Part shown: piece after piece, positions 3,434 through 25,632 of the stretch
Numbering within the stretch: the first letter of the stretch is position 1
Layout: each line of letters opens with the position of its first letter
Source: an uncultured Methanosarcinales archaeon
GTDB lineage: Archaea; Nanobdellota; Nanobdellia; Woesearchaeales; JAGWAF01
Reading direction: 5' to 3'
Length of the DNA stretch: 25,632 nt
NCBI GenBank assembly: GCA_964562875.1
Contig: CAZLVM010000001.1
Location: 1 to 25,632 of the forward strand
The notes under the pieces: generated by a model
Seen by the model: only the letters and a program-made list of their open reading frames with translations
What the model was told of the DNA's origin: nothing
Database searches by the model: none
Program-made: the position numbers and the translations under genes

Positions 3434-3934
3434 TCAGAACTTGTACAGGTTCAGGAATGATTTTATTCTTTGGTGGAGATCCATTGTGTCTGCCTTTACT
3501 CCCATCTGGAATCCTGCTGTAAACGGCTTGTAGAAATACTTGTCAAACACAGTTCTTATGAAGTAGAATATTGGCTTTCCTTCCCATCTTGATTCGTAGT
3601 CTGTCTCAAGGAATGCGTCAAATACAAACTGCACTTTGCCCTGGTTGAGTTTTATCTTTGTTCCGTCCTTTTCAACTTCAACATCCTTTATGTGGGTCAT
3701 TACTATTCTTATTTTAATGACATTTTTTGCATAGTCGGTTACTTTTTTCCATGGCTCAATCACAATCTCAATGCTTTTTCCATCAGGATCAACAACTTCT
3801 ATGTTCTTGTTTTCTCTTTTGTCATAGCCCTTTTCCCTAAACCATTCGTCTATCATGGTGTAGAGTTCTGCCACGCTGAAAAGACCTTCGTAAGTAAGCC
3901 TTAGCTTGTCCAGCATTACTTCTCTTTCAGCCAT
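3434..3934 (-). CDS. Hypothetical protein, paralog 3 of a tandem triplet (166 aa)
   Basis: ATG at 3934, 1 nt after the paralog-2 stop (TAA-A-ATG). Shares LTYEGLF..LY..IDEWF.EKGY, KDVEVEKDG.K and DY...W motifs with its neighbours. Confidence 0.85.
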   Translation of the reverse strand: MAEREVMLDKLRLTYEGLFSVAELYTMIDEWFREKGYDKRENKNIEVVDPDGKSIEIVIEPWKKVTDYAKNVIKIRIVMTHIKDVEVEKDGTKIKLNQGKVQFVFDAFLETDYESRWEGKPIFYFIRTVFDKYFYKPFTAGFQMGVKADTMDLHQRIKSFLNLYKF

Positions 3935-5114: not shown

Positions 5115-5208
5115 ACTCTTTTTTCCGTATTATTGGTATATAAGGTTTTCTATGAATATAAAAAACAAAAACCTTAATAAACAACCTAAAACACATTTTG
5201 TATTGCAT

Positions 5209-5298
5209 GTGCTCGTAGCCTAGCCTGGATAAGGCGTTAGCCTCCTACCATTTTTGGAAGAAAGCTAAAAATCCGGGGTTCGAATCCCCGCGGGCACG
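5209..5298 (+). tRNA. trnR: tRNA-Arg(CCU) with a 15-nt intron at the canonical 37/38 position (5248-5262)
   Basis: GTGCTCG TA GCCT AGCCTGGATA AGGC G TTAGC CT-CCT-A [CCATTTTTGGAAGAA] A GCTAA AAATC CGGGG TTCGAAT CCCCG CGGGCAC G. Mature length 75 nt, G discriminator, no CCA. Confidence 0.93.
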
Positions 5299-5400
5299 TT
5301 AGTGGCTGCGGCCTTCCAAACTTTGTTTGGATTTGCCGCGGGCACGTTAGTGGCTAAGGCTTTTTGAACTTTGTTCAAATTTGCCGCGGGCACGTTAGTG
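5288..5400 (+). repeat. Tandem 48-bp units: three copies of CCGCGGGCACGTTAGTG (tRNA 3' end plus trailer) separated by hairpin cassettes
   Basis: Copies start at 5288, 5336 and 5384. Hairpins TCCAAAC-TTT-GTTTGGA (5315-5331) and TTTGAAC-TTT-GTTCAAA (5363-5379). Confidence 0.95.
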
Positions 5401-5423
5401 AAAAAAGCAAAAAAGAAAGCATA

Positions 5424-6419
5424 ATGAAAAATAAAGCATATATCGTATTGTCTGCATTTATAGGGCTGCTGTTGTTAGTTTTTGTTTTGCAGGCAACAGG
5501 CCTTGAAAAGCTAAAAATACCTTTCAAGCAGTTTTCAATTCTTCATCTCATTCTTTACATTGTACTTTCCAGTCTTATGATGCTGGTAATTACCATGAGA
5601 TGGAGTCTTGTCCTTAAGGCGCATGGCTACAGGCTTCCGTTTGTCAAAATGATTCTTTTCATGCTTGCAGGAAAGTCAATCAGTTATGTAACTCCAAGCG
5701 CGCAGGTTGGAGGGGAAGCTGCCAGGACTTATCTTCTCAAGCATTCAGGAGTCCCTACTGAAAAGGGTCTTTCATCAATTATCATAGACAAGATAATGGA
5801 CCTGACTTCAAACTCAATATTTGCTATTCTTGCTTTGCCTATCATGATACTTTTCTTTCCTTTTTCAGTTTATTTGAAGATTGCAATGGGTGCAATCCTG
5901 TTAGTCATAGTATTTTTGATAGCTGCATTCTACTATCAGTCATTCAGGGGAAAGGGATTTTTCAATCACTTATTCAGATTCTTTCATCTTCACAAGATAA
6001 AGAGTCTTGAGGGCTATGAGCAGAAACTGATTGACACAGAGACAAATGTTGCGCATTTCTTTAAGCATAACAGAGTAACGTTTAGGTATGCTATATTCTA
6101 TTCAATCCTCACATGGGTAATTATGTTTTTTGAGTTCAAGATAGCTCTTCTTGTATTTGGCTATAACGCAAACCCAATTCAGGTTATACTTGCGCTTTCA
6201 ATGGTTGGATTCGCATACATGATGCCTGTTCCTGCGGCGATTGGGATACTTGAGGCTTCAGAAGCTTCAATGTTTACTCTTCTTGGGATAAATCCTGGAA
6301 TAGGAATTGCAATGAGCTTTTTAATTAGGGCAAGGGATATGGTAGTGATGCTTCTTGGAATGGGAAGCCTTTCCCACTACGGCCTGAAAATAGCAAAAGC
6401 AGCTTCAGAAAATGAATAA
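5424..6419 (+). CDS. Lysylphosphatidylglycerol-synthase TM / UPF0104 flippase-like membrane protein
   Basis: About 8 hydrophobic segments, RWSLVLK, SYVTPSAQVGGEAAR.Y.LK, IIDKIMD, PVPAAIGILE, LIR. ATG 5424 preferred because the TTG at 5364 is inside the repeat. Confidence 0.85.
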   Translation: MKNKAYIVLSAFIGLLLLVFVLQATGLEKLKIPFKQFSILHLILYIVLSSLMMLVITMRWSLVLKAHGYRLPFVKMILFMLAGKSISYVTPSAQVGGEAARTYLLKHSGVPTEKGLSSIIIDKIMDLTSNSIFAILALPIMILFFPFSVYLKIAMGAILLVIVFLIAAFYYQSFRGKGFFNHLFRFFHLHKIKSLEGYEQKLIDTETNVAHFFKHNRVTFRYAIFYSILTWVIMFFEFKIALLVFGYNANPIQVILALSMVGFAYMMPVPAAIGILEASEASMFTLLGINPGIGIAMSFLIRARDMVVMLLGMGSLSHYGLKIAKAASENE

Positions 6420-8817: not shown

Positions 8818-9480
8818 ATGATTGTAATGAAAGAAAATACTCGGCTTTTTAGGGATATTACAGTATTTTCAGTTTTTGTTTTTATTGTTTTGATATTTTT
8901 GGGAAACATTTTAGGGAAGGCAGGATTTTCTCTTGACAGCATTTTGTTCATTATAATAACAATTTCTCTATATTTTAGCAGGAAGACATTTTCCCTTAGC
9001 CCTGCTGTTTTTATTATGCTTGAAATATCAATGATTCTTCATAATACTGGAGTTTTTGGCTTTTATTATGCATCCCCTCTTCCAATAAGGTGGGACATAA
9101 TTACTCATTTTACTGCCATAATGTCGTCATCAATGGCATTTTTCTGTTTTTTGGAAGGCTATTTGGGAAAAAAGATTTTATCAGGCAAATCCCTTGCAAT
9201 AATTTTTGTAGCTTTTCTTTCAGCGCTTGGAATAGGGAGCCTGATAGAAACTGCGGAATTCACTGGATTTTCTTTTTTGGGTTTTGGAGAAGGGGGTTTT
9301 ATGTTTGGGGACGGCGACCTTACTGTTGTTAACACTGACCTTCCAATTGAAGAGCAGGTTGAGGCGTATGGGGGCGGTTGGTTTAATACAATGCATGATC
9401 TCATTTCCAACAGCGTAGGGGCATTTCTTGGAGTGTCAATCATGTCATTTCTGCATTTCAGGAAAAAGCGCAGGAAATAA
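8818..9480 (+). CDS. Multi-pass membrane protein (DUF2238/VanZ-like)
   Basis: Hydrophobic helices with WDIITHF, IETAEF and MHDLISN conserved-looking H/E/D residues. Confidence 0.65.
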   Translation: MIVMKENTRLFRDITVFSVFVFIVLIFLGNILGKAGFSLDSILFIIITISLYFSRKTFSLSPAVFIMLEISMILHNTGVFGFYYASPLPIRWDIITHFTAIMSSSMAFFCFLEGYLGKKILSGKSLAIIFVAFLSALGIGSLIETAEFTGFSFLGFGEGGFMFGDGDLTVVNTDLPIEEQVEAYGGGWFNTMHDLISNSVGAFLGVSIMSFLHFRKKRRK

Positions 9481-14275: not shown

Positions 14276-14518
14276 TTACCCCCGTTTCCAGACAACAGCT
14301 CCTTTTTTCTTTACAATTCTTATTCTGTGCAGGGGAATCATTGCTTCTTCTTCACCCCGGTCAACAGCCATGAAACCTTCATCAATTCTTTTTATTTCTT
14401 CAAATTTAATCTCAATTATTTTTTTTAGAATTCTATCTTCATATCCTATTACATAATCAGAAGGATTTTCATTTTCATCCCATTTAATTTTGTTAATTAA
14501 CTCATGTATCGGTTGCAT
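14276..14518 (-). CDS. DUF504 / MJ1316-family protein (predicted RNA-end recognition)
   Basis: ELINKIKWD...YVIGYEDR...IPLHRIRIVKKKGAVVWKR matches the DUF504 (UPF0248) pattern. Confidence 0.85.
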   Translation of the reverse strand: MQPIHELINKIKWDENENPSDYVIGYEDRILKKIIEIKFEEIKRIDEGFMAVDRGEEEAMIPLHRIRIVKKKGAVVWKRG

Positions 14519-14520
14519 TT

Positions 14521-15798
14521 TTAGTAAAGAAATGATTTTGCATCGCTTCTTTCAGAAATCTCGCCTGCAACATTCTCTGCCATCATCTTTTTCACTTCAT
14601 TATTCTTTGTTGTATGGCCTAAAACCCAGCCAAGCTTTACATATGCTGTTTCAGGAAGCATGTCTTCTGCAAATATGCATCCAAGCTCAATTGAAAGCTT
14701 TCTTAGATTAGTGTAAACATATGGGTGAACCCTTCCGTAAATTGTTTGTGATGCAACAACTACACTTGTTCCTTTGTCAATTGCCTTTTTTATGTTGTCC
14801 AGTATATTTGTAGGCACATGCCCAAGGGCTGTTGCAGAGAGCACAATTCCTTTGTACCCTTTTTTCACGTAAAAGTCAATCACTTCACCGTCCATTCCGG
14901 GATAGATAATAACCATAGCTGTTTTTGCCTCGAACTTGTCATCAACCTTTGGCTTTCCTTCGCCTTTTTTTCTGTAATTTTTGTTGACAGCTTCAATTTT
15001 CCCTTCAGGATAGACTTTTGCAAGCGGCATTTCGTTTATTGGCCTGAATGCATCTCGTCTTGAGGTATGCATTTTTCTTGCCTTTGTTCCTCTGTTCAAT
15101 AAACAGTAATCGTCAGATGATGTTCCGTGCATGCAGGTCATTACTTCTGCAATGTCTGATTTTGCAGCTGCTGTTACTGCGCATATCAGGTTCATGAAAG
15201 CGTCTGAGCTTCCTCTGTCTATGCTTCTTTGAGCTGCTGTGATAATAACTGGCTTGTTTAAATCCCGAAGAAAGAATGAAAGGGCTGCAGCTGCAATGTG
15301 CAGTGTGTCTGTTCCCATTGTAAGCACAACTCCGTCAGAATCTTCCAGTTCTTTGACAACTTCTTTTGCCATTAAGCTCCATTCTTTGTTGGAAAAGTCT
15401 TCGCTCATGGTAGCTATTATTTTCCTTGCCTTGAGATTGGAAACCTTTGCAATTTCCGGCATCATCTGCACAAAATCTTCTGCAGTGTAATCAGCATGAA
15501 CTCCTCCTGTCTTGTAGTCTATCTTGGATGATATTGTTCCTCCTGTAGACAAAACAGAAACAGTTGGCAGTTTTTTGTCAAATGGGATCTTGGTCTTTTT
15601 CTCCTTTTTGGGCTTATACTCCTCAATAACTTTAATTTCTTTTATCTTTTTGTTTTCAACGCCAATGTTATATCCGTTGTCAAGCTTTACAACAGTAATA
15701 TTCTTGTCAAGAATCTCCGGCCTTGGCATAAGGATTCCTTCAAACTCTTCATCTTTTGTTGTTACCTTTACTCGGTCACCTGCTTTTGCGTCTGCCAT
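14521..15798 (-). CDS. gatD: Glu-tRNA(Gln) amidotransferase subunit D
   Basis: N-terminal VKLDNGYNIG, STGGTISSKIDY, GTDT, AAQRSIDRGSSD, RKMHTSRRDAF, DMLPETAYVKL. Confidence 0.97.
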   Translation of the reverse strand: MADAKAGDRVKVTTKDEEFEGILMPRPEILDKNITVVKLDNGYNIGVENKKIKEIKVIEEYKPKKEKKTKIPFDKKLPTVSVLSTGGTISSKIDYKTGGVHADYTAEDFVQMMPEIAKVSNLKARKIIATMSEDFSNKEWSLMAKEVVKELEDSDGVVLTMGTDTLHIAAAALSFFLRDLNKPVIITAAQRSIDRGSSDAFMNLICAVTAAAKSDIAEVMTCMHGTSSDDYCLLNRGTKARKMHTSRRDAFRPINEMPLAKVYPEGKIEAVNKNYRKKGEGKPKVDDKFEAKTAMVIIYPGMDGEVIDFYVKKGYKGIVLSATALGHVPTNILDNIKKAIDKGTSVVVASQTIYGRVHPYVYTNLRKLSIELGCIFAEDMLPETAYVKLGWVLGHTTKNNEVKKMMAENVAGEISERSDAKSFLY

Positions 15799-15852
15799 GG
15801 TTAAGAACTCAGGCCTTTTGGTATATAAATTTTGTTAAAGTTGGAGAAATCA

Positions 15853-15952
15853 TGCTGTTTGCACCAAGTAAATTACTAGTTTGGCTTATCTTTCTTTGTG
15901 TGATTCATTTTAGGGAGCAAAATCATAATAATCACGGAGCGTGCAAACAGCA
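15853..15952. repeat. Dispersed stem-closed element, copy D (divergent)
   Basis: Perfect 12-bp inverted repeat TGCTGTTTGCAC / GTGCAAACAGCA around a 76-nt interior with CAAGTAAATTAC, GTGTGATTCATTTT and CACGGAGC, matching the interiors of copies A-C. Confidence 0.8.
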
Positions 15953-15963
15953 CAGTTAAGAAA

Positions 15964-18258
15964 TCATCCAAAATAAGACGGCTTGTCTGCCTTCATTTCT
16001 TTTGCTTTTGCTGAAGAAAACTTGTCTTTGAGATCCTTGTACTCTTCTTCAATTTCTTTTGTTGCAGACGGCCTTACAATGCTGAAAGACTCATCAAAGT
16101 CAGCCATTGTAACTTCTTTTGCTTTGATATCTTTTCTTAGCGCGATTATTCCTGCTTCCCTGCATACTGCTTCTGTGTCTGCCCCCACATATCCTTCTGC
16201 TTTTTCAGCAAGTTTTGCAGCAGATACATCTTTTGCAAGAGGCATTCCCTTTAAGTGAATCTCAAATATTTTTTCTCTTGCTTTTTTGTCAGGCACAGAT
16301 GTTAGTATTATTCTGTCAAACCTTCCAGGCCTAAGCAGCGCAGTGTCAAGCATGTCCGGCCTATTTGTTGCAGCTATGATAACTATATCATTAAGCGCTT
16401 CAAGCCCGTCCATCTCTGTCAGCATTTGGTTAACTACTCTTTCTGTGACATGGGCATCTGAACTTGCGCTTCTCCTTGGCGCAAGCGAGTCTATCTCGTC
16501 AAAGAATATGATTGTTGGGGCTGTCTGCCTTGCCTTCTTAAAAATTTCCCTCACAGCCTTTTCACTTTCACCAACCCATTTTGAAAGCAGCTCAGGTCCT
16601 TTAACAAGTATGAAGTTTGATTCTGATTCAGTTGCAATTGCCTTTGCAAGCATTGTTTTCCCTGTTCCTGGAGCGCCGTAAAGTAAAATACCCTTTGGAG
16701 GCTTAACCCCTATTCTTTTGAAGATTTCAGGGTTTTTCAGAGGCCATTCAACAGCCTCTTTCAGCTGCTGCTTAACTTGGTCAAGCCCGCCAATCTGGCT
16801 CCACTTGACATTAGGCGACTCAATGAGCACTTCCCTTAATGCAGAAGGCCTTACAACCTTTAGTGATTCCTTGAAATCATCTCTTGTAATCTTTAGATTT
16901 TCAAGCACACTCTGAGGTATTGTATCTTCCTTGCCATACCTAAGATCGGGCAATAGCCGCCTTAGCACTACCATTGCAGCCTCTTTTGCCAGGCTCGCAA
17001 GGTCTGCCCCAACAAAGCCATGCGTTACTCTCGCTATCTCATTGAGATTTACATCCTTGTCAAGCGGCATATTTCTTGTGTGAATCTTAAGAACATTTTC
17101 CCTTCCTGTTTTGTCAGGAACGCCTATCTCTATCTCCCTGTCAAACCTTCCAGGCCTTCTCAATGCAGGGTCAAGTATGTTAGGCACGTTTGTTGCTGCA
17201 ATAACAACAATCTTTCCCCTGTTCTGCAGGCCGTCCATCAGCGAAAGCAGCTGGGCAACAACCCTTCTTTCAACTTCCCCTTTTGTCTCTTCCCTTTTTG
17301 ATGCTATTGCATCTATTTCGTCTATAAATATGATTGATGGAGCATTTTTTTCTGCATCTTCGAATATTTTTCTTAAGTTCTCTTCTGATTGACCGTAGAA
17401 CTTGCTCATGATTTCAGGGCCGTTGATAACAACAAAATGTGATGATGTTTCGTTTGCAACTGCTTTGGCAAGAAGTGTTTTTCCTGTTCCAGGAGGTCCG
17501 TGAAGCAGAACTCCTTTTGGAGGTTCTATGCCCAGTCTTTCAAACAGCTCGGGATGCTTCAATGGAAGCTCAACCATTTCCCTGATTTTTTTGACTTCAT
17601 CATGAAGCCCGCCTATGTCTTCATAGCTGACTTCGGGAATTGTCTCTTCCTTAACCTCAACTGCCTCTGGATTGAATACAATCTCTGTTTCATCGCTGAT
17701 TATGACTGCCTGTTTAGGGGTTGTTTCTGTAACAACAAATTTTATGTCTCCAAATCCAAACCCTATTCCGCCCATCATGCTTTCATCAAGCATTGAGAAT
17801 ATGTCGTCAAATGGACTGCCGCTCATGGTGCTTCTTCTTGTTCTTGTGCCTCCAAGGGATATGATGTCTCCCTTGATTACAGCTCTTCCAAGAAGCCCGT
17901 GTTTGAATACAGTTGGGGAAGCCTTAATCATGACGCTCTTTATTGCAGGGGCTATTATCACCTTCTTGGCTTCCTTTACATCAGACCTTCTTACTTTTAC
18001 CTGCTCGCCTATGGATGACTTGGCATTCCTTCGTGTGAGCCCGTCCATCCTTATTATACTAATTCCTATGTCTCCTGGATAGGCTCTGTCAACAATGGCT
18101 ACGCTTGTATTCTCCCCTTCAATTTCAACAATCTCGCCAGGTCTTGTGCCTATTTCTTTCATAAAATTAGAATCAATTCTAACAATGCCTTTATTTACAT
18201 CATCCTGGATTGCTTCAGCAACCTTCAGCTTTATTTCCTTTGATGATTTGGCTATCAT
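15964..18258 (-). CDS. cdc48: CDC48/VCP (VAT) AAA+ ATPase
   Basis: N-domain, two Walker A motifs ([16 protein letters not shown]), two Walker B motifs (IFIDEID, IFFDEID), RPGRFDR twice, C-terminal YFG. Confidence 0.98.
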
Positions 18259-20743: not shown

Positions 20744-21846
20744 AATCGGCAAAAACAAAATTCTATTCGTGGAAGGCAGGAGCCCTTGCAAAGGGATGCC
20801 AAATGTGCGTAAAAGGCGAAAAGATTGTGCTCTTCGCAACAGGCCTTTGCCCTAATAGGTGTTATTTCTGCCCTATCTCAGACAGTAAAAATGGGAAGGA
20901 TGATGTTTATGCAAATGAGTGGAAGATTAAGTCAGAAAAGGAAATCATAAAAGAAGCAGAGCTTTGCAGTGCAAAAGGCGCAGGCATAACAGGCGGAGAT
21001 CCTCTTGTAAAGCTGGATAGGGTTGTTGGGTATATCAATCTCCTAAAGAAAAGGTTTGGAAAGAAATTTCATATTCATCTTTATACTCCTCTTGAACTGG
21101 TAAATGAAAAAACACTGAAGCGGCTTTATGATGCAGGTCTTGACGAGATAAGGTTTCATCCTGACATTGAAGACCCTTCAAAATGGAACAGGCTTGAGCT
21201 TGCAAGAAAATTCAAATGGGATGTTGGAGTTGAAATCCCTTCAATTCCGGGAAAAGAAGAGCAAACAATGCAGCTGGTTGATTTCATAAAGGGAAAAGTA
21301 AATTTCCTTAACATAAATGAGCTTGAGATTTCTGACTCAAACGCAAACAATCTTGTGGAAAGAGGGTTCAAGTCTAAGGATAATATGTCTTATGCTGTTA
21401 AGGGGAGCGAGGAGCTTGCAAAAAAGATTCTAAAGTATGCTGCATCAAAGAATATCAATACTCATTATTGCACAGCTCAGCTAAAAGATAGGGTTCAGTT
21501 AAGAAAGAGAATTCTGAAGCGGGCAGAAAACGCTGCAAAAAAATATGATATTATCACAGAGGAGGGCATGCTCATAAGGGGGGCTGTATATCTCATGAAG
21601 CCGTCCTTTGGATACATGAGAAAGATTGAAAAGAAAAGAAAAATTCTCATCCCAAAACTGAAAAGAATAATGGAATCCCTCAACCTAAAAAACGCAGAGC
21701 TCGACCAGAGAAAGTGCAGGATACTCATGCATCCTGAAGACATTGAAAAGCTCTCGGATAAGTTAAAAGAAAAGGGACTAGTCCCTGCAATTGTTGAAGA
21801 GTATCCTACTTGGGATGCTCTCGAAGTCGAAATAGAATTCTTGTAG
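20740..21846 (+). CDS. Radical SAM protein of unknown function (COG2108-like archaeal family)
   Basis: CPNRCYFC (CxxxCxxC), GITGGDP, HIHLYT, DEIRFH, extra GCQMC. ATGA overlap with tatD. Confidence 0.9.
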   Translation: MKSAKTKFYSWKAGALAKGCQMCVKGEKIVLFATGLCPNRCYFCPISDSKNGKDDVYANEWKIKSEKEIIKEAELCSAKGAGITGGDPLVKLDRVVGYINLLKKRFGKKFHIHLYTPLELVNEKTLKRLYDAGLDEIRFHPDIEDPSKWNRLELARKFKWDVGVEIPSIPGKEEQTMQLVDFIKGKVNFLNINELEISDSNANNLVERGFKSKDNMSYAVKGSEELAKKILKYAASKNINTHYCTAQLKDRVQLRKRILKRAENAAKKYDIITEEGMLIRGAVYLMKPSFGYMRKIEKKRKILIPKLKRIMESLNLKNAELDQRKCRILMHPEDIEKLSDKLKEKGLVPAIVEEYPTWDALEVEIEFL

Positions 21847-21858
21847 AAAAATAGGCTG

Positions 21859-22031
21859 TTGCCACCAAGCTAATAAGAGCCAATGCTGCCCAGCAAACAA
21901 GAGTCATTGCCACCCAGCGAAGTACTTAATCTAAAGATTGTTTAACACGTGGGACTCCTTTGAAGAAGAAATAAAATATCAACACGTAGCGTGGCAATGA
22001 CTCAGAACTATTTTATCACAAAGCGTGGCAA
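21859..22031. repeat. Degenerate outer shell of the dispersed element, enclosing copy A
   Basis: TTGCCAC-CAAGC at 21859-21870 and AGC-GTGGCAA at 22022-22031. A second left arm AGCCAATGCTGC at 21878-21889 is identical to the copy-C left arm. Confidence 0.75.
21901..22003. repeat. Dispersed stem-closed element, copy A
   Basis: 13-bp inverted repeat GAGTCATTGCCAC / GTGGCAATGACTC around a 77-nt interior CCAGCGAAGTAC...ACGTGGGACTCCTTT...CACGTAGC. Confidence 0.9.
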
Positions 22032-22037
22032 TTGCCT

Positions 22038-22133
22038 CCATTGCCACCTAGCGAAGTACACAATCTAAACATTCTTCTGCACGTGACTCCTTTCAGGAAG
22101 CATGAATAAAAGCAGCACGAAGCGTGGCAATGG
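22038..22133. repeat. Dispersed stem-closed element, copy B
   Basis: 10-bp inverted repeat CCATTGCCAC / GTGGCAATGG around a 76-nt interior CTAGCGAAGTAC...ACGTGACTCCTTT...CACGAAGC. Confidence 0.9.
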
Positions 22134-22171
22134 TAGAAAAATATTTATACTATGCTTCTTAAAATTAAAGC

Positions 22172-22483
22172 ATGAAAATAACTATAGACACAAAAGAGGA
22201 TTCAAAAGAGGAAATCAAGAAGGCAATAAGTTTCCTTTCATCTCTTAGCGACGGAACTATCTATACAAACTGTGCAAATAATGAAAAGCCTTCCCATCAA
22301 AAGGATATATTTTCGGATGACCCATCACCTGAAGTGGGGGGAGGAATGTTCAGCATGTTTGGCAGCTCTTCATCTCCAGCCCAGGATTCTCCGTCAGATT
22401 CTTCTGCTGAAACAACAGTAGTTCTGGAAGAGGAAAAGAAAGAGCCTAAAAAAAAGCCTGAAATACAGGTAATTGAGTATTAA
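22172..22483 (+). CDS. Hypothetical protein, 103 aa, with low-complexity S/D/P/E middle
   Basis: TTTATAC at 22144-22150 upstream; 1-nt gap to archease, so it is the first gene of the archease-rtcB operon. Confidence 0.8.
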   Translation: MKITIDTKEDSKEEIKKAISFLSSLSDGTIYTNCANNEKPSHQKDIFSDDPSPEVGGGMFSMFGSSSSPAQDSPSDSSAETTVVLEEEKKEPKKKPEIQVIEY

Positions 22484-22484
22484 G

Positions 22485-22916
22485 ATGAAACAATACGAGT
22501 TTCTAGAGCACACTGCAGACGCCAAGTTTAAGGCTTATGGAAATGATTTTGGAGAGGCATTTTCAAACGCTGCAAAGGCTATGGTTTCACTGATGTATGA
22601 TTCTGAACTTGTTGCAGCATCTCACATAGAGGAGATAAAAGCTGAAGGCAAGGACATGGGCCAGCTTCTTTACAAGTTTCTTGAGGAATTTCTTTTTCTG
22701 CAGGATTCAAAGCAGTTTGTGCTTCACGGCTTTCCAAAGGAAATAAAGATAATGGAATCAAAAGGAAAATTCTCGCTGAAGGCAGAAGCCACCGGAGACT
22801 ATCTTGACAAGACAGATGAAAAATATGAGGTAAGCCCTGTTGTCAAGGCAGTAACTTACAATGAAATGAAAATAAGCGAAAAACCTTTATATGTGCAGGT
22901 AGTTCTTGACATCTAA
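22485..22916 (+). CDS. Archease (RtcB cofactor)
   Basis: YEFLEHTADAKFKAYG N-terminus, VKAVTYNEM, C-terminal VVLDI; adjacent to rtcB. Confidence 0.93.
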   Translation: MKQYEFLEHTADAKFKAYGNDFGEAFSNAAKAMVSLMYDSELVAASHIEEIKAEGKDMGQLLYKFLEEFLFLQDSKQFVLHGFPKEIKIMESKGKFSLKAEATGDYLDKTDEKYEVSPVVKAVTYNEMKISEKPLYVQVVLDI

Positions 22917-24346
22917 TGGAAAAGGTTGAGCTTGAGAAAGAGAGCGAATTTGTTTGGAAAATTCCAAAAACTGGCTCTATGAATGTTCCTGCAGTAGTTT
23001 ATGCTTCTGACAAGCTTATGGAAAACATAAAGCAGGATTTGACTCTTCAGCAGATAAGGAATGTGGCGTGCCTTAAGGGAATACAGAAGAATGCTATTGC
23101 GCTTCCTGACTCCCACCAGGGATATGGGTTTAACATAGGCGGTGTAGCTGCCTTTGACATGAACGAAGGAGTGATTTCTCCAGGCGGAGTTGGCTATGAC
23201 ATCAACTGCGGAGTAAGGATGCTCAGGACTGACATGACTGCAGATGAGCTTTTGAAAAAAAAGAATGAAATTATTGAGGAGTTGTTCAAGGAGATACCTG
23301 CAGGTGTTGGAAAGGGCGGTTCTACAAAGTTAACAAAGGATAGTCTTATGGAAGCTCTTGAAAAAGGTCCTGAGTGGGCTCTCAAGGAAGGCTATGGTAA
23401 AAAAGAAGACTTGGAAAGAACAGAAGAAGATGGAAGAATGAAGGACGCTGATCCTTCAAAGGTTTCCCAGAGGGCAATTGCAAGGGGAATGCCTCAGCTG
23501 GGGACATTGGGAGCTGGAAATCATTTTATTGAGCTTCAGAAAGTTGACAAAATCTATGACGAGAAAGTTGCAAAGGCGTTTGGCATAGAAAAGGAAGGCC
23601 AGGTTACAATGATGATTCACTGCGGAAGCAGGGGCTTGGGCCATCAGGTTGCTTCTGATTATATTCAGTCAATGGAAAACAAGTTTGGCATAGAAGGCCT
23701 GCCTGACAGGGAGCTAATCAACGCTCCAATACAATCAGATCTTGGTCAGGATTATTACAAGGCAATGTGCTGTGCAATAAATTATGCTTTTGCAAACAGG
23801 CATTTGATAATGCACTGGGCAAGGGAAAGCTTTGAAAAAATATTTGGTTCTTCAGATGGCATGGACATGATATATGATGTCTGTCATAACATTGCAAAGT
23901 TTGAGAATCATGAGATTGACGGCAAGAAAACAAAGGTTTGCATTCATAGAAAGGGCGCAACAAGAAGCTTTGGCCCTGGAAGGGAAGAAATTCCTGATGT
24001 TTATAGAAATGTTGGCCAGCCTGTCATAATTCCCGGAAGCATGGGCACTGCATCATACCTTCTTGTAGGTACAAAAAAGGCAGAGGAGCTTTCGTTTGGA
24101 AGCACTGCTCACGGCGCAGGAAGGCTGTTGTCAAGGCATGCTGCAATGAGATTAAAGAGGGGAGAGCAGGTTAAGAAAGACCTTGAGGCAAAGGGAATTA
24201 CTGTCAAGGGAGCATCAATGAAAGGCCTTGCAGAGGAAATGCCTGAAGCCTACAAGGATATTGATGAGGTTGTTCGTGTTTCTGACTCTCTTGGTCTTGC
24301 AAAAAAAGTGGCAAGAGTTGTTCCTTTAGAAGTAATCAAGGGTTAA
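22916..24346 (+). CDS. rtcB: tRNA-splicing ligase RtcB
   Basis: PDSHQGYGF, GYDINCG, GAGNHFIE, HCGSRGLGH, DVCHNIAK, HRKGATR, STAHGAGR. TAATG coupling to archease. Confidence 0.98.
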   Translation: MEKVELEKESEFVWKIPKTGSMNVPAVVYASDKLMENIKQDLTLQQIRNVACLKGIQKNAIALPDSHQGYGFNIGGVAAFDMNEGVISPGGVGYDINCGVRMLRTDMTADELLKKKNEIIEELFKEIPAGVGKGGSTKLTKDSLMEALEKGPEWALKEGYGKKEDLERTEEDGRMKDADPSKVSQRAIARGMPQLGTLGAGNHFIELQKVDKIYDEKVAKAFGIEKEGQVTMMIHCGSRGLGHQVASDYIQSMENKFGIEGLPDRELINAPIQSDLGQDYYKAMCCAINYAFANRHLIMHWARESFEKIFGSSDGMDMIYDVCHNIAKFENHEIDGKKTKVCIHRKGATRSFGPGREEIPDVYRNVGQPVIIPGSMGTASYLLVGTKKAEELSFGSTAHGAGRLLSRHAAMRLKRGEQVKKDLEAKGITVKGASMKGLAEEMPEAYKDIDEVVRVSDSLGLAKKVARVVPLEVIKG

Positions 24347-24945
24347 ATCTCAATAATTTTTCCTTTCTTTCCAACATTGATGACTTTTGTTTTCCCAATC
24401 TTTTCTTCAATGCCTTCTGCTTCATGAACATGGGAGCAGAGCATTATGTCCGGCTTAAACTTGTCAATAGCCTTTCTTATGCCTTCTGAACCTGGAAAGA
24501 ATGATGTGAACTTTTCCATCTTTGTTCCTGTTGGATGCACGTGAGTTACCATTATTGTCTTTTTTGCTTTCTTTACTCCTTTGTATCCCTGTTCTATCAG
24601 CTTGAAAATTTCATCTTCGCTCAGCTGGAACAAGCCTATGTTTGCGCCGCCAGCTCCAAAAAGACCGACATCGCCTGCCATTATTGAGTATCCATGCAGG
24701 TTTGTTGCGCCGTAAAGCTCTGCAAGAAAGTCTGCTGTTGCAACAGTCTCATGGTTTCCTGGAATCAGAACTACTTTTTCTCCTAGCTTTACGAAAGGTC
24801 CGATTATTCCTGCTGTAGAAGCTTCTGCCATTGTCAGGTCTCCGCAAAGGACAACTAAGTCAACCTTTTCCTTCTTTGCCCGTTCTGCCAGTTTCTTGGC
24901 AAGGCCTGTATCGCCGTGTATATCTCCGGCTGCAAGTATTTTCAT
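24343..24945 (-). CDS. Calcineurin-like metallophosphoesterase
   Basis: GDIHGD, CGDL, PGNHE, VTHVHP, CSHVHE, VINVG. ATG 24945 with upstream AGGTG RBS preferred over the GTG at 24954. Confidence 0.92.
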   Translation of the reverse strand: MKILAAGDIHGDTGLAKKLAERAKKEKVDLVVLCGDLTMAEASTAGIIGPFVKLGEKVVLIPGNHETVATADFLAELYGATNLHGYSIMAGDVGLFGAGGANIGLFQLSEDEIFKLIEQGYKGVKKAKKTIMVTHVHPTGTKMEKFTSFFPGSEGIRKAIDKFKPDIMLCSHVHEAEGIEEKIGKTKVINVGKKGKIIEI

Positions 24946-25019
24946 TTTATGCACCTTTGCAGATGGAGGCTTTCAAAATTCCTGATTTTGAATTGTCGCC
25001 GGCTGCAAGTATTTTCATT
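24926..25019. repeat. 21-bp direct repeat (24926-24946 and 24999-25019) of the phosphoesterase start, flanking a hairpin cassette
   Basis: CCGGCTGCAAGTATTTTCATT occurs twice, 73 bp apart. Internal hairpin TTCAAAAT-TCCTG-ATTTTGAA at 24972-24992. Confidence 0.9.
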
Positions 25020-25092
25020 GTAAGAAATCATAAGGAATATGCCTTTAAAAAGCTTTGCGGTAAACTAAGAATTAAATTACCTTAATTTAAGG

Positions 25093-25248
25093 CATTGCCA
25101 CCAAGCGAAGAATAGCCAATGCTGCCAAGCGAAGTACTGTCTTTAAACATTAATTTCTGCGTGTGACTCCTTTTTAGAATAAATAACACCATTAACACGG
25201 AGCGCAGAATTGGCTAAAAAAAGAACAAAAACACAGAGCGTGGCAATG
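25093..25248. repeat. Outer shell of the dispersed element, enclosing copy C
   Basis: CATTGCCAC-CAAGCGAAG at 25093-25110 and AGC-GTGGCAATG at 25237-25248. Confidence 0.85.
25114..25215. repeat. Dispersed stem-closed element, copy C
   Basis: 11/12-bp inverted repeat AGCCAATGCTGC / GCAGAATTGGCT around a 78-nt interior CAAGCGAAGTAC...GTGTGACTCCTTT...CACGGAGC. Confidence 0.9.
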
Positions 25249-25250
25249 GC

Positions 25251-25632
25251 TTACCTTGCCTTAACCCTTACTTCTTCGCCTTCGAGATGGACAATTGTTG
25301 AGGGCTTTCCTTTTTTTTCTCCCTCGTAAATTGCAAAGTCAATATTTGCTTTTAGGTCATGGTGCAAATCATCAACAGATGTCATGTTGTTTCCGCCGGT
25401 TTTGTTTGCTGATGTTGTGACAATTGGAATATTAAGCTCTTCAGCAACTTTTGAGAACCAGTGTTCTGGAATTCTTATCCCCACGCTGTCCATGCCCATG
25501 TTTACCTGCTTTGCAATAGCGCTTTTATTTTTCAGTTTCATGATGAGTGTGTATGGTCCTGGAAGTTTTTCAATCCATTCTTCTGCATCTTCTGTCATCT
25601 CGCAGTTTTCCCTAATCCACTCTTTGGAAGGC
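25251..25632 (-). CDS. tsaC: L-threonylcarbamoyladenylate synthase, YrdC/TsaC type (5' part outside the window)
   Basis: LPGPYTLI, SVGIRIP, PIVTTSAN, GKPSTIV. The protein ends right after the YrdC domain, with no Sua5 C-terminal extension. Confidence 0.92.
   Translation of the reverse strand, partial: PSKEWIRENCEMTEDAEEWIEKLPGPYTLIMKLKNKSAIAKQVNMGMDSVGIRIPEHWFSKVAEELNIPIVTTSANKTGGNNMTSVDDLHHDLKANIDFAIYEGEKKGKPSTIVHLEGEEVRVKAR

Follow-up and report, generated by a model that had tools for sequence, protein, structure and literature searches.

A dispersed and nested repeat family, probably of MITE type, at gene ends of a Woesearchaeota (DPANN) chromosome

The described systems that come closest to the repeats analyzed in this work are prokaryotic MITEs, REP-type elements, integron attC sites, and small self-cleaving ribozymes. 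REPs possess a conserved palindrome of 20–40 nt and a flanking tetranucleotide, and we know of no REP/RAYT element that makes target duplications; attC sites, 57–141 bp long, are imperfect inverted repeats located at gene 3' ends, in which structure counts more than sequence, and they are not known to make target duplications either. The ribozymes considered here (twister, hammerhead, pistol, and hatchet) have a variable closing helix and conserved "loops" and are present in several copies per genome, sometimes in tandem. Prokaryotic MITEs are represented by SM1–SM4 of Sulfolobus, the Correia elements of Neisseria, the pneumococcal RUP, and the enterobacterial ERIC/IRU. In addition, a published census put the density of MITEs in one Woesearchaeal genome at about 105 per Mb (PMC11602168).

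We analyzed a window of 25.6 kb (the term indicates the whole stretch of DNA considered), which is a chromosomal contig of an archaeon with a GC content of about 40%, whose proteins have their best matches in Candidatus Woesearchaeota, a DPANN lineage. An earlier note, compiled from the letters of the sequence, had pointed out a dispersed element in it and had left open whether this was a mobile element or a structured RNA, with a preference for the former. According to our data, the repeats are probably copies of a non-autonomous MITE-type DNA transposon in a Woesearchaeota (DPANN) chromosome. The family appears to be undescribed, in a comparison that leaves aside the supplementary MITE catalogue of PMC11602168; the MITE reading fits both the Woesearchaeal census reported there and the assembly breaks described below.

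Copies of the element and flanking genes

The genes of the window include those for GatD/GatE, Cdc48, deoxyhypusine synthase, TatD, a radical SAM protein, archease-RtcB, TruD, and adenylate kinase, together with an intron-containing tRNA-Gly; the exact look-up of two window proteins did not retrieve any record. In the region 5208–5400, the tRNA-Gly(UCC) is followed by a tandem repeat of 48 nt (2.4 copies, 86% matches). This repeat reiterates the tRNA-Gly 3' end (CCGCGGGCACG) with the sequence downstream of it and reaches into the predicted start of an LPG-synthase-like ORF (5364–6419); slippage could account for it, or else an integrating element that left reiterated remnants of its attachment site. 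Genes for RNA end processing and repair cluster in the window, i.e., those coding for an MJ1316 RNA cyclic-end recognition domain protein (14276–14518), archease and the RtcB ligase (22473–24346), and TruD (866–1873). The operon placed 3' of locus 1, the site of copies A and B, consists of a 103-aa ORF, archease, and RtcB and is preceded by a TATA-like TTTATAC; locus 1 lies immediately upstream of this operon. Since relatives retain the operon and lack the element, the adjacency looks coincidental.

The window harbors four full copies of the element (A, B, C, and D), all on the + strand, and three partial or outer elements (Table 1). The four copies had been reported in the earlier note and are real, with the limits given there for A, B, and D and with C extending to 25216; a covariance model gives all four of them 91–99 bits. 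This model, built from eight copies and run without filters, scored 99.1 bits for A, 98.1 for B, 91.2 for C, and 93.1 for D and found no copy in the window beyond these four. What the first inspection had missed are the additional ends, that is, the stacked 5' ends at 21854–21902, the 3' end at 22017–22036, and the outer element at 25088–25253.

A full element is about 95–105 bp long, and what had been called its closing stem is the pair of terminal inverted repeats, with the consensus G(G)CATTGCC[A/G]C. As claimed, the stems stay complementary: the terminal arms measure 10–13 nt and match at 92–100% of their positions. Asymmetric subterminal blocks are located inside the 5' end (CNAGCGAAGTAC) and inside the 3' end (CACGNAGC), and a central block (CACGTGACTCCTTT) completes the pattern. 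Copies A–C carry the blocks CNAGCGAAGTAC, GTG(N)GACTCCTTT, and CACGNAGC in exact form and copy D in degenerate form; the motif formed by the tail and the stem occurs five times, against 0.3 occurrences expected by chance. The six-frame translations contain stops in most copies and have no conserved frame. Taken on the − strand, the central block is AAAGGAGTCACGTG; speculatively, this looks like a ribosome-binding site with a GTG start codon after it.

Table 1. Elements, element ends, and direct repeats in the window.
Feature	Position	Strand	Description
Left 11-nt direct repeat GTAGAAAAATA	21843–21853		Target-site duplication; includes the radical SAM TAG stop
Composite insertion, 280 nt	21854–22133	+	Outer short element, lone 5' end, A, outer 3' end, B
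Outer short element, 5' end	21854–21877	+	Stem GGCTGTTGCCAC, then CAAGC, then 7 nt
Lone 5' end	21878–21902	+	Copy-C stem (AGCCAATGCTGC, then CCAGC); no matching 3' end
Copy A, full	21901–22003	+	13-bp perfect terminal inverted repeats
Lone 3' end	22017–22036	+	CACAAAGC, then stem GTGGCAATTGCC
Copy B, full	22038–22133	+	10-bp perfect terminal inverted repeats
Right 11-nt direct repeat GTAGAAAAATA	22133–22143		TATA-like TTTATAC next
Left 9-nt direct repeat AGAAATCAT	15845–15853		Flanks copy D
Copy D, divergent full	15853–15952	+	12-bp perfect terminal inverted repeats; antisense to Cdc48 and GatD
Right 9-nt direct repeat AGAAATCAT	15959–15967		Includes the Cdc48 stop codon
Outer short element, 5' end, around C	25088–25113	+	Stem TAAGGCATTGCCAC, then CAAGCGAAGAAT
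Copy C, full	25114–25216	+	12-bp stem, one mismatch; nested; antisense to flanking genes
Outer element, 3' end	25217–25253	+	A-rich, CACAGAGC, stem GTGGCAATGGC(TTA); abuts/overlaps the Sua5-like stop

The 5' end that opens locus 1 (21854–21877) pairs imperfectly with the 3' end preceding copy B (22017–22036), and TRF detected a period of 24 across the stacked 5' ends. Around copy C, the outer element has a 14-nt 5' arm that is 93% complementary to 25240–25253. Given the extra lone and outer ends surrounding A/B and C, locus 1 and locus 3 are nested or tandem composites. The three nested insertions share one offset, falling 12–13 nt inside the 5' stem of the host element, which suggests that the element's own ends are targeted; such targeting of own ends is known for some insertion sequences.

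All the copies are intergenic and are located at gene 3' ends. The statement that the three loci begin within 2–12 nt of a stop codon holds for locus 1, which comes just after the TAG of the radical SAM gene at 21846, and does not hold for D and C: the + strand ORFs near them (15524–15838 and 24831–25085) have no Pfam match, and the latter overlaps a real gene on the opposite strand. Real stop codons are nevertheless found near both copies, on the − strand and at the other end of the elements, since that of Cdc48 (TGA, 15964–66) is 11 nt from the 3' end of copy D and that of the Sua5-like gene (25251–53) is 0 nt from the 3' end of locus 3. With respect to the co-directional genes between which it lies, the element is in sense orientation at three loci and in antisense orientation at two.

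Insertion sites and presence in other genomes

An exact 11-nt direct repeat flanks the 280-nt A/B composite and a 9-nt one flanks copy D; in either case, the neighboring gene's stop codon falls within the repeat. When 20,000 pairs of flanks were drawn at random from the window, about 0.05% of them had a repeat of at least 11 nt and about 1.2% one of at least 9 nt. At D and at locus 3, 7–8 bases lie between the direct repeat and the element (seven of them, ACAGTTA, between copy D and its right repeat), and the duplication at locus 3 is weak or ambiguous. In the second genome that carries the family, the MAG CAYPXA01, a 7-nt repeat directly adjoins the two inverted repeats of copy M6, and most of the copies have no clear duplication in their flanks. 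Clean sites are few, the observed lengths being 11, 9, 7, and 7 nt, and the target duplications of the family span roughly 7–11 bp.

The comparison of filled and empty sites, which the earlier note had proposed, was carried out on related genomes. In L017 (GatD 77% identical), whose gene order is the same as that of the window (RtcB, archease, small ORF, radical SAM, TatD ... Cdc48 ... GatD), 36 nt separate the radical SAM stop from the next ATG, with no element; the contig with P0002 (80% identical) has a 36-nt gap at the locus 1 site, as judged from the gene map alone. In L022 (Cdc48 84% and GatD 85% identical), 39 nt are found between Cdc48 and GatD. Once the element and one copy of the direct repeat are removed, the window is collinear with the empty sites of L017 and L022, including the downstream TATA-like box. 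Moreover, the unfiltered covariance model did not retrieve any copy from the syntenic 20-kb regions of L017, L018, and L020. On the basis of the duplications, the empty sites, and the absence from relatives, the elements are DNA insertions specific to this lineage and located in the interval from a stop codon to the next promoter; the direct repeats of 11 and 9 nt, the empty sites, and the lack of copies in the three syntenic regions bear out the preference for a DNA-level mobile element more strongly than orientation by itself.

The elements thus inserted as DNA, duplicated about 9–11 bp of target, dispersed in multiple copies, nested into one another, and are absent from relatives. Five features of MITEs are found together in them, namely size and non-coding nature, terminal inverted repeats, target duplication, filled versus empty sites, and multiple copies.

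A closely related strain, L007 (radical SAM 99% identical), harbors the A/B composite with three SNPs. Over the 2.4 kb aligned between the window and this strain, 14 out of 20 differences are concentrated within the terminal 90 nt of the radical SAM gene (window 21759–21828), and in this variable end a paired insertion and deletion shifts the frame for a few bases.

A scan for the three-block pattern in one genome per species revealed only one other assembly with the element, CAYPXA01 (GCA_964414985.1), whose loci (46.6 kb) contain eight full copies; a 5' end standing alone and a related element of greater length are also present there. In a scan of the JGI metagenome and in two scans of viral contigs, the only matches were chance ones in coding DNA, and a protein database search by way of the spurious ORFs of the element did not yield further copies. 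The window and the analyzed CAYPXA01 loci have no orthologues in common. The similarity of A to M1, a copy of the MAG, is 0.80, and that of A to B, in the same genome, is 0.76; because similarity across MAGs equals that within a genome, the family might serve to trace DNA exchange among DPANN lineages. The MAG (loci L001–L003, L023, and L026) is labeled "uncultured Methanosarcinales archaeon"; if this label is right, the element extends across archaeal phyla, and if the MAG really belongs to DPANN, the label is wrong.

A second repeat type adjoins the elements of the MAG (L003, 3565–3738, − strand; L001, 1420–1456). Its unit is about 120 nt long with 11-bp inverted ends (ATTGCCTTGCT/AGCAAGGCAAT) and sits in a short element having the 5' stem of the family and a CACGAAGC tail; its motif GCTCCAAAACTC is present in L001 as well. 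Since this second repeat lies inside a family element, the intergenic regions of the MAG look like mosaics of small inverted-repeat elements. Independent Logan assemblies of the MAG organism break inside the elements or shortly after them (L024 ends at 9238, L025 ends at 3728, and L027 begins within a copy), a behavior that dispersed repeats are expected to cause. As a MITE family, the repeats are relevant mainly to annotation and assembly and would account for Woesearchaeota contig breaks at gene ends. Their insertions mark recent events in very compact DPANN genomes, in which the tolerated site extends from a stop codon to the next TATA box.

After their entry into the chromosome as DNA, the surviving copies occupy the short neutral interval that separates a stop codon from the following TATA box or from the end of a convergent gene. 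Later copies landed inside or beside earlier ones and gave rise to nested and tandem composites and to lone ends. In the MITE reading, mobilization would occur in trans, through a staggered-cut (DDE type) transposase encoded elsewhere or now lost, and the inner blocks may be either cis-acting transposase-binding sequences or remnants of the ends of a parent insertion sequence. No transposase domain was found among the window ORFs, nor was an IS-sized unit bounded by element ends in the ~72 kb examined; likewise, the co-occurring gene for a mobilizing enzyme that the earlier note had proposed to look for was not found in the window or in the MAG loci examined.

Conservation, folding, and alternative readings

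The description of a constant interior closed by interchangeable stems turned out to be overstated, since the mean pairwise column identity is 0.65 in the interior and 0.66 in the stems. The pairwise identity of the interiors ranges from 55 to 84% (55–64% for D versus the other copies) and that of the 5' stems from 27 to 100%; conservation is blocky and not uniform (lag-1 autocorrelation p = 0.0025). The stems have about 3 mismatches in about 86 base pairs (eight copies), compared with an interior difference of 16–45%, and in a 12-copy alignment, obtained by adding M3 and M6–M8 to the eight copies, 89% of the stem cells are paired. Relative to A, the ends of C have four compensated positions plus one mismatch, and those of D are compensated at five out of five. 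The idea of a selected structure with a free stem sequence is thus valid for the terminal inverted repeats only, as no interior helix survives the inclusion of 12 copies. The co-variation of the ends could derive from subfamilies originating from related insertion sequences, each with matched ends, or the folded stem could be what is recognized.

The search in Rfam 15 agreed with the statement that the element does not belong to any known RNA family: only two tRNAs of the window reached the gathering score, no E value at locus 1 was better than 1.9, and the MAG loci L001–L003 gave no match. Single copies fold better than shuffled sequences, with z from −2 to −3.7 and about equally on both strands, and these scores arise from the terminal stem alone. 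RNAalifold returned the terminal helix and short pairings (columns 18–95, 19–94, 23–90, and 24–89) that never change on both sides. The GTG/CAC inner helix does not vary in the 12-copy alignment, which for this reason speaks neither for nor against it. A GCUNC/GGAGU pairing, including G-U pairs, can form on the − strand, with no change on both sides. An interior helix or pseudoknot, CGAAG/CUUUG, had two compensated pairs (in D and M5) with eight copies and collapsed with 12. The variants of the head (GCGAAG/GCGCAG) and of the central part (CCTTTG/CCTGAA) occur in all four combinations among the 12 copies, with pair 21–64 being AU in seven, CG in two, and other in three; since they combine freely, the helix was withdrawn.

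Other candidates were also discarded. The K-turn, BHB, and H/ACA readings (CNA bulge, GAA/GNA loop) were made by eye, and their pairing is lost in D, with nothing else in support. The frames of a possible small protein are open in some copies only, and retron-like a1/a2 repeats with an AGC branch motif are contradicted by the lack of a reverse transcriptase and by the many copies. Lastly, a replication origin (ORB repeats, AT-rich core) is at odds with three loci within 10 kb and no Orc1/Cdc6 gene nearby, and the neighboring 764-aa gene encodes the Cdc48 AAA ATPase.

The behavior of the ends is the main point on which a different kind of mobile element has to be weighed, one that depends on a hairpin and whose enzyme, a HUH/RAYT-like transposase or a tyrosine recombinase, would recognize the complementarity of the ends in a single-stranded DNA stem and not their sequence. 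It is in line with end sequences that differ between copies while remaining complementary (the ~3 mismatches per ~86 bp in eight copies, the four compensated changes relative to A in C and the five out of five in D) and with the perfect palindromes formed by abutting copies; the duplications of 11 and 9 nt are, however, not left by the known hairpin systems of HUH enzymes and tyrosine recombinases, neither a conserved REP-type palindrome nor a flanking tetranucleotide is present, no HUH/RAYT or tyrosine recombinase gene was found in the window or in the ~72 kb examined, and the same co-variation is also possible if subfamilies descend from related insertion sequences with matched ends. Overall, we consider it unlikely. 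The resemblance to CGTC-type REP palindromes that had been suggested was abandoned, given the target duplications and the lack of a conserved palindrome. An archaeal mobile element whose ends are recognized as a folded stem, so that a single-stranded DNA or RNA hairpin is required for it to transpose, seems doubtful to us. If true, it would explain both the fixed nesting offset and ends that change together yet stay complementary; combined with target duplications, it would represent a combination of mechanisms previously unseen in DPANN archaea and different from those of REPINs and attC. In other words, the concerted change of both ends would point to a mechanistically unusual element if it reflects true structure-based recognition and not the descent from several related insertion sequences.

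The blocky interior conservation (p = 0.0025), the same blocks kept in two genomes, the better folding of single copies with respect to shuffled sequences (z −2 to −3.7), and the possible − strand GCUNC/GGAGU pairing speak for a functional structured RNA (the product of a small RNA gene, or an RNA that acts in cis or cleaves itself) dispersed in the form of a mobile module, with the closing helix and the conserved loops as its core. We regard it as quite improbable, since Rfam gave no match even at E = 10, the z-scores come from the terminal stem alone with the two strands folding about equally, CGAAG/CUUUG is uncompensated with 12 copies and GTG/CAC is invariant, the orientation with respect to transcription is mixed, and no promoter is evident at locus 1, the start of which is 8 nt from the preceding stop codon; a riboswitch or ribozyme reading is likewise unsupported. 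The position of the copies, each just after a stop codon and, at locus 1 and D, just before the next TATA box, and the strong stem that any read-through transcript would contain in either orientation might instead indicate a mobile element co-opted by the host as intergenic punctuation, i.e., a hairpin stabilizing mRNA 3' ends, an insulator or terminator of transcription between genes in tandem, or a protein-binding site. This has very little probability in our opinion: relatives with the same gene order lack the element, the alignment has no conserved oligo-T terminator signature, and purifying selection against insertion elsewhere in a compact genome explains the position equally well. As for the MITE reading, the uneven duplication lengths, the offset repeats, and the fixed nesting offset do not fit it cleanly, and a sequence-specific transposase does not, by itself, predict co-varying ends, which are its one unexplained feature.

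Comparison with known systems

The element shares with integron attC sites the imperfect inverted repeats at gene 3' ends; unlike attC, it is flanked by housekeeping genes in conserved order, has no integrase gene nearby, and is accompanied by duplications. Like the small self-cleaving ribozymes, it has a variable closing helix, conserved "loops", and several copies per genome, sometimes in tandem; it differs from these ribozymes and from other multicopy RNAs in having no covariance-model match, no conserved interior helices, and no strand bias with respect to transcription, and in the direct evidence of a DNA insertion with duplication.

The similarity to REP, REPIN, and BIME sequences (RAYT, HUH Y1) is broader and concerns an extragenic, hairpin-forming unit of about 100 nt, clustered in mosaics and with compensatory changes in the stem. 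In contrast to REPs, the element lacks the conserved palindrome with its tetranucleotide, its stems being only 10–13 bp long and variable and no GTAG/CTAC-type flank being present, and it has duplications of 11 and 9 nt; neither the window nor the genes called in the MAG loci included a RAYT (Y1 HUH transposase) gene.

With respect to the prokaryotic MITEs, the differences lie in the ends, which co-vary between subfamilies while the interior remains alignable, in the asymmetric subterminal blocks, in the duplication length, which is apparently variable (7–11 bp), in the nesting at a fixed offset in host copies, and in the lack of a parent insertion sequence among the sequences examined. Like MITEs, on the other hand, the element is about 100 bp long and non-coding, it has terminal inverted repeats and is flanked by target duplications, it is intergenic and multicopy with presence or absence among relatives, and it forms nested and tandem composites as well as a long hairpin if transcribed.
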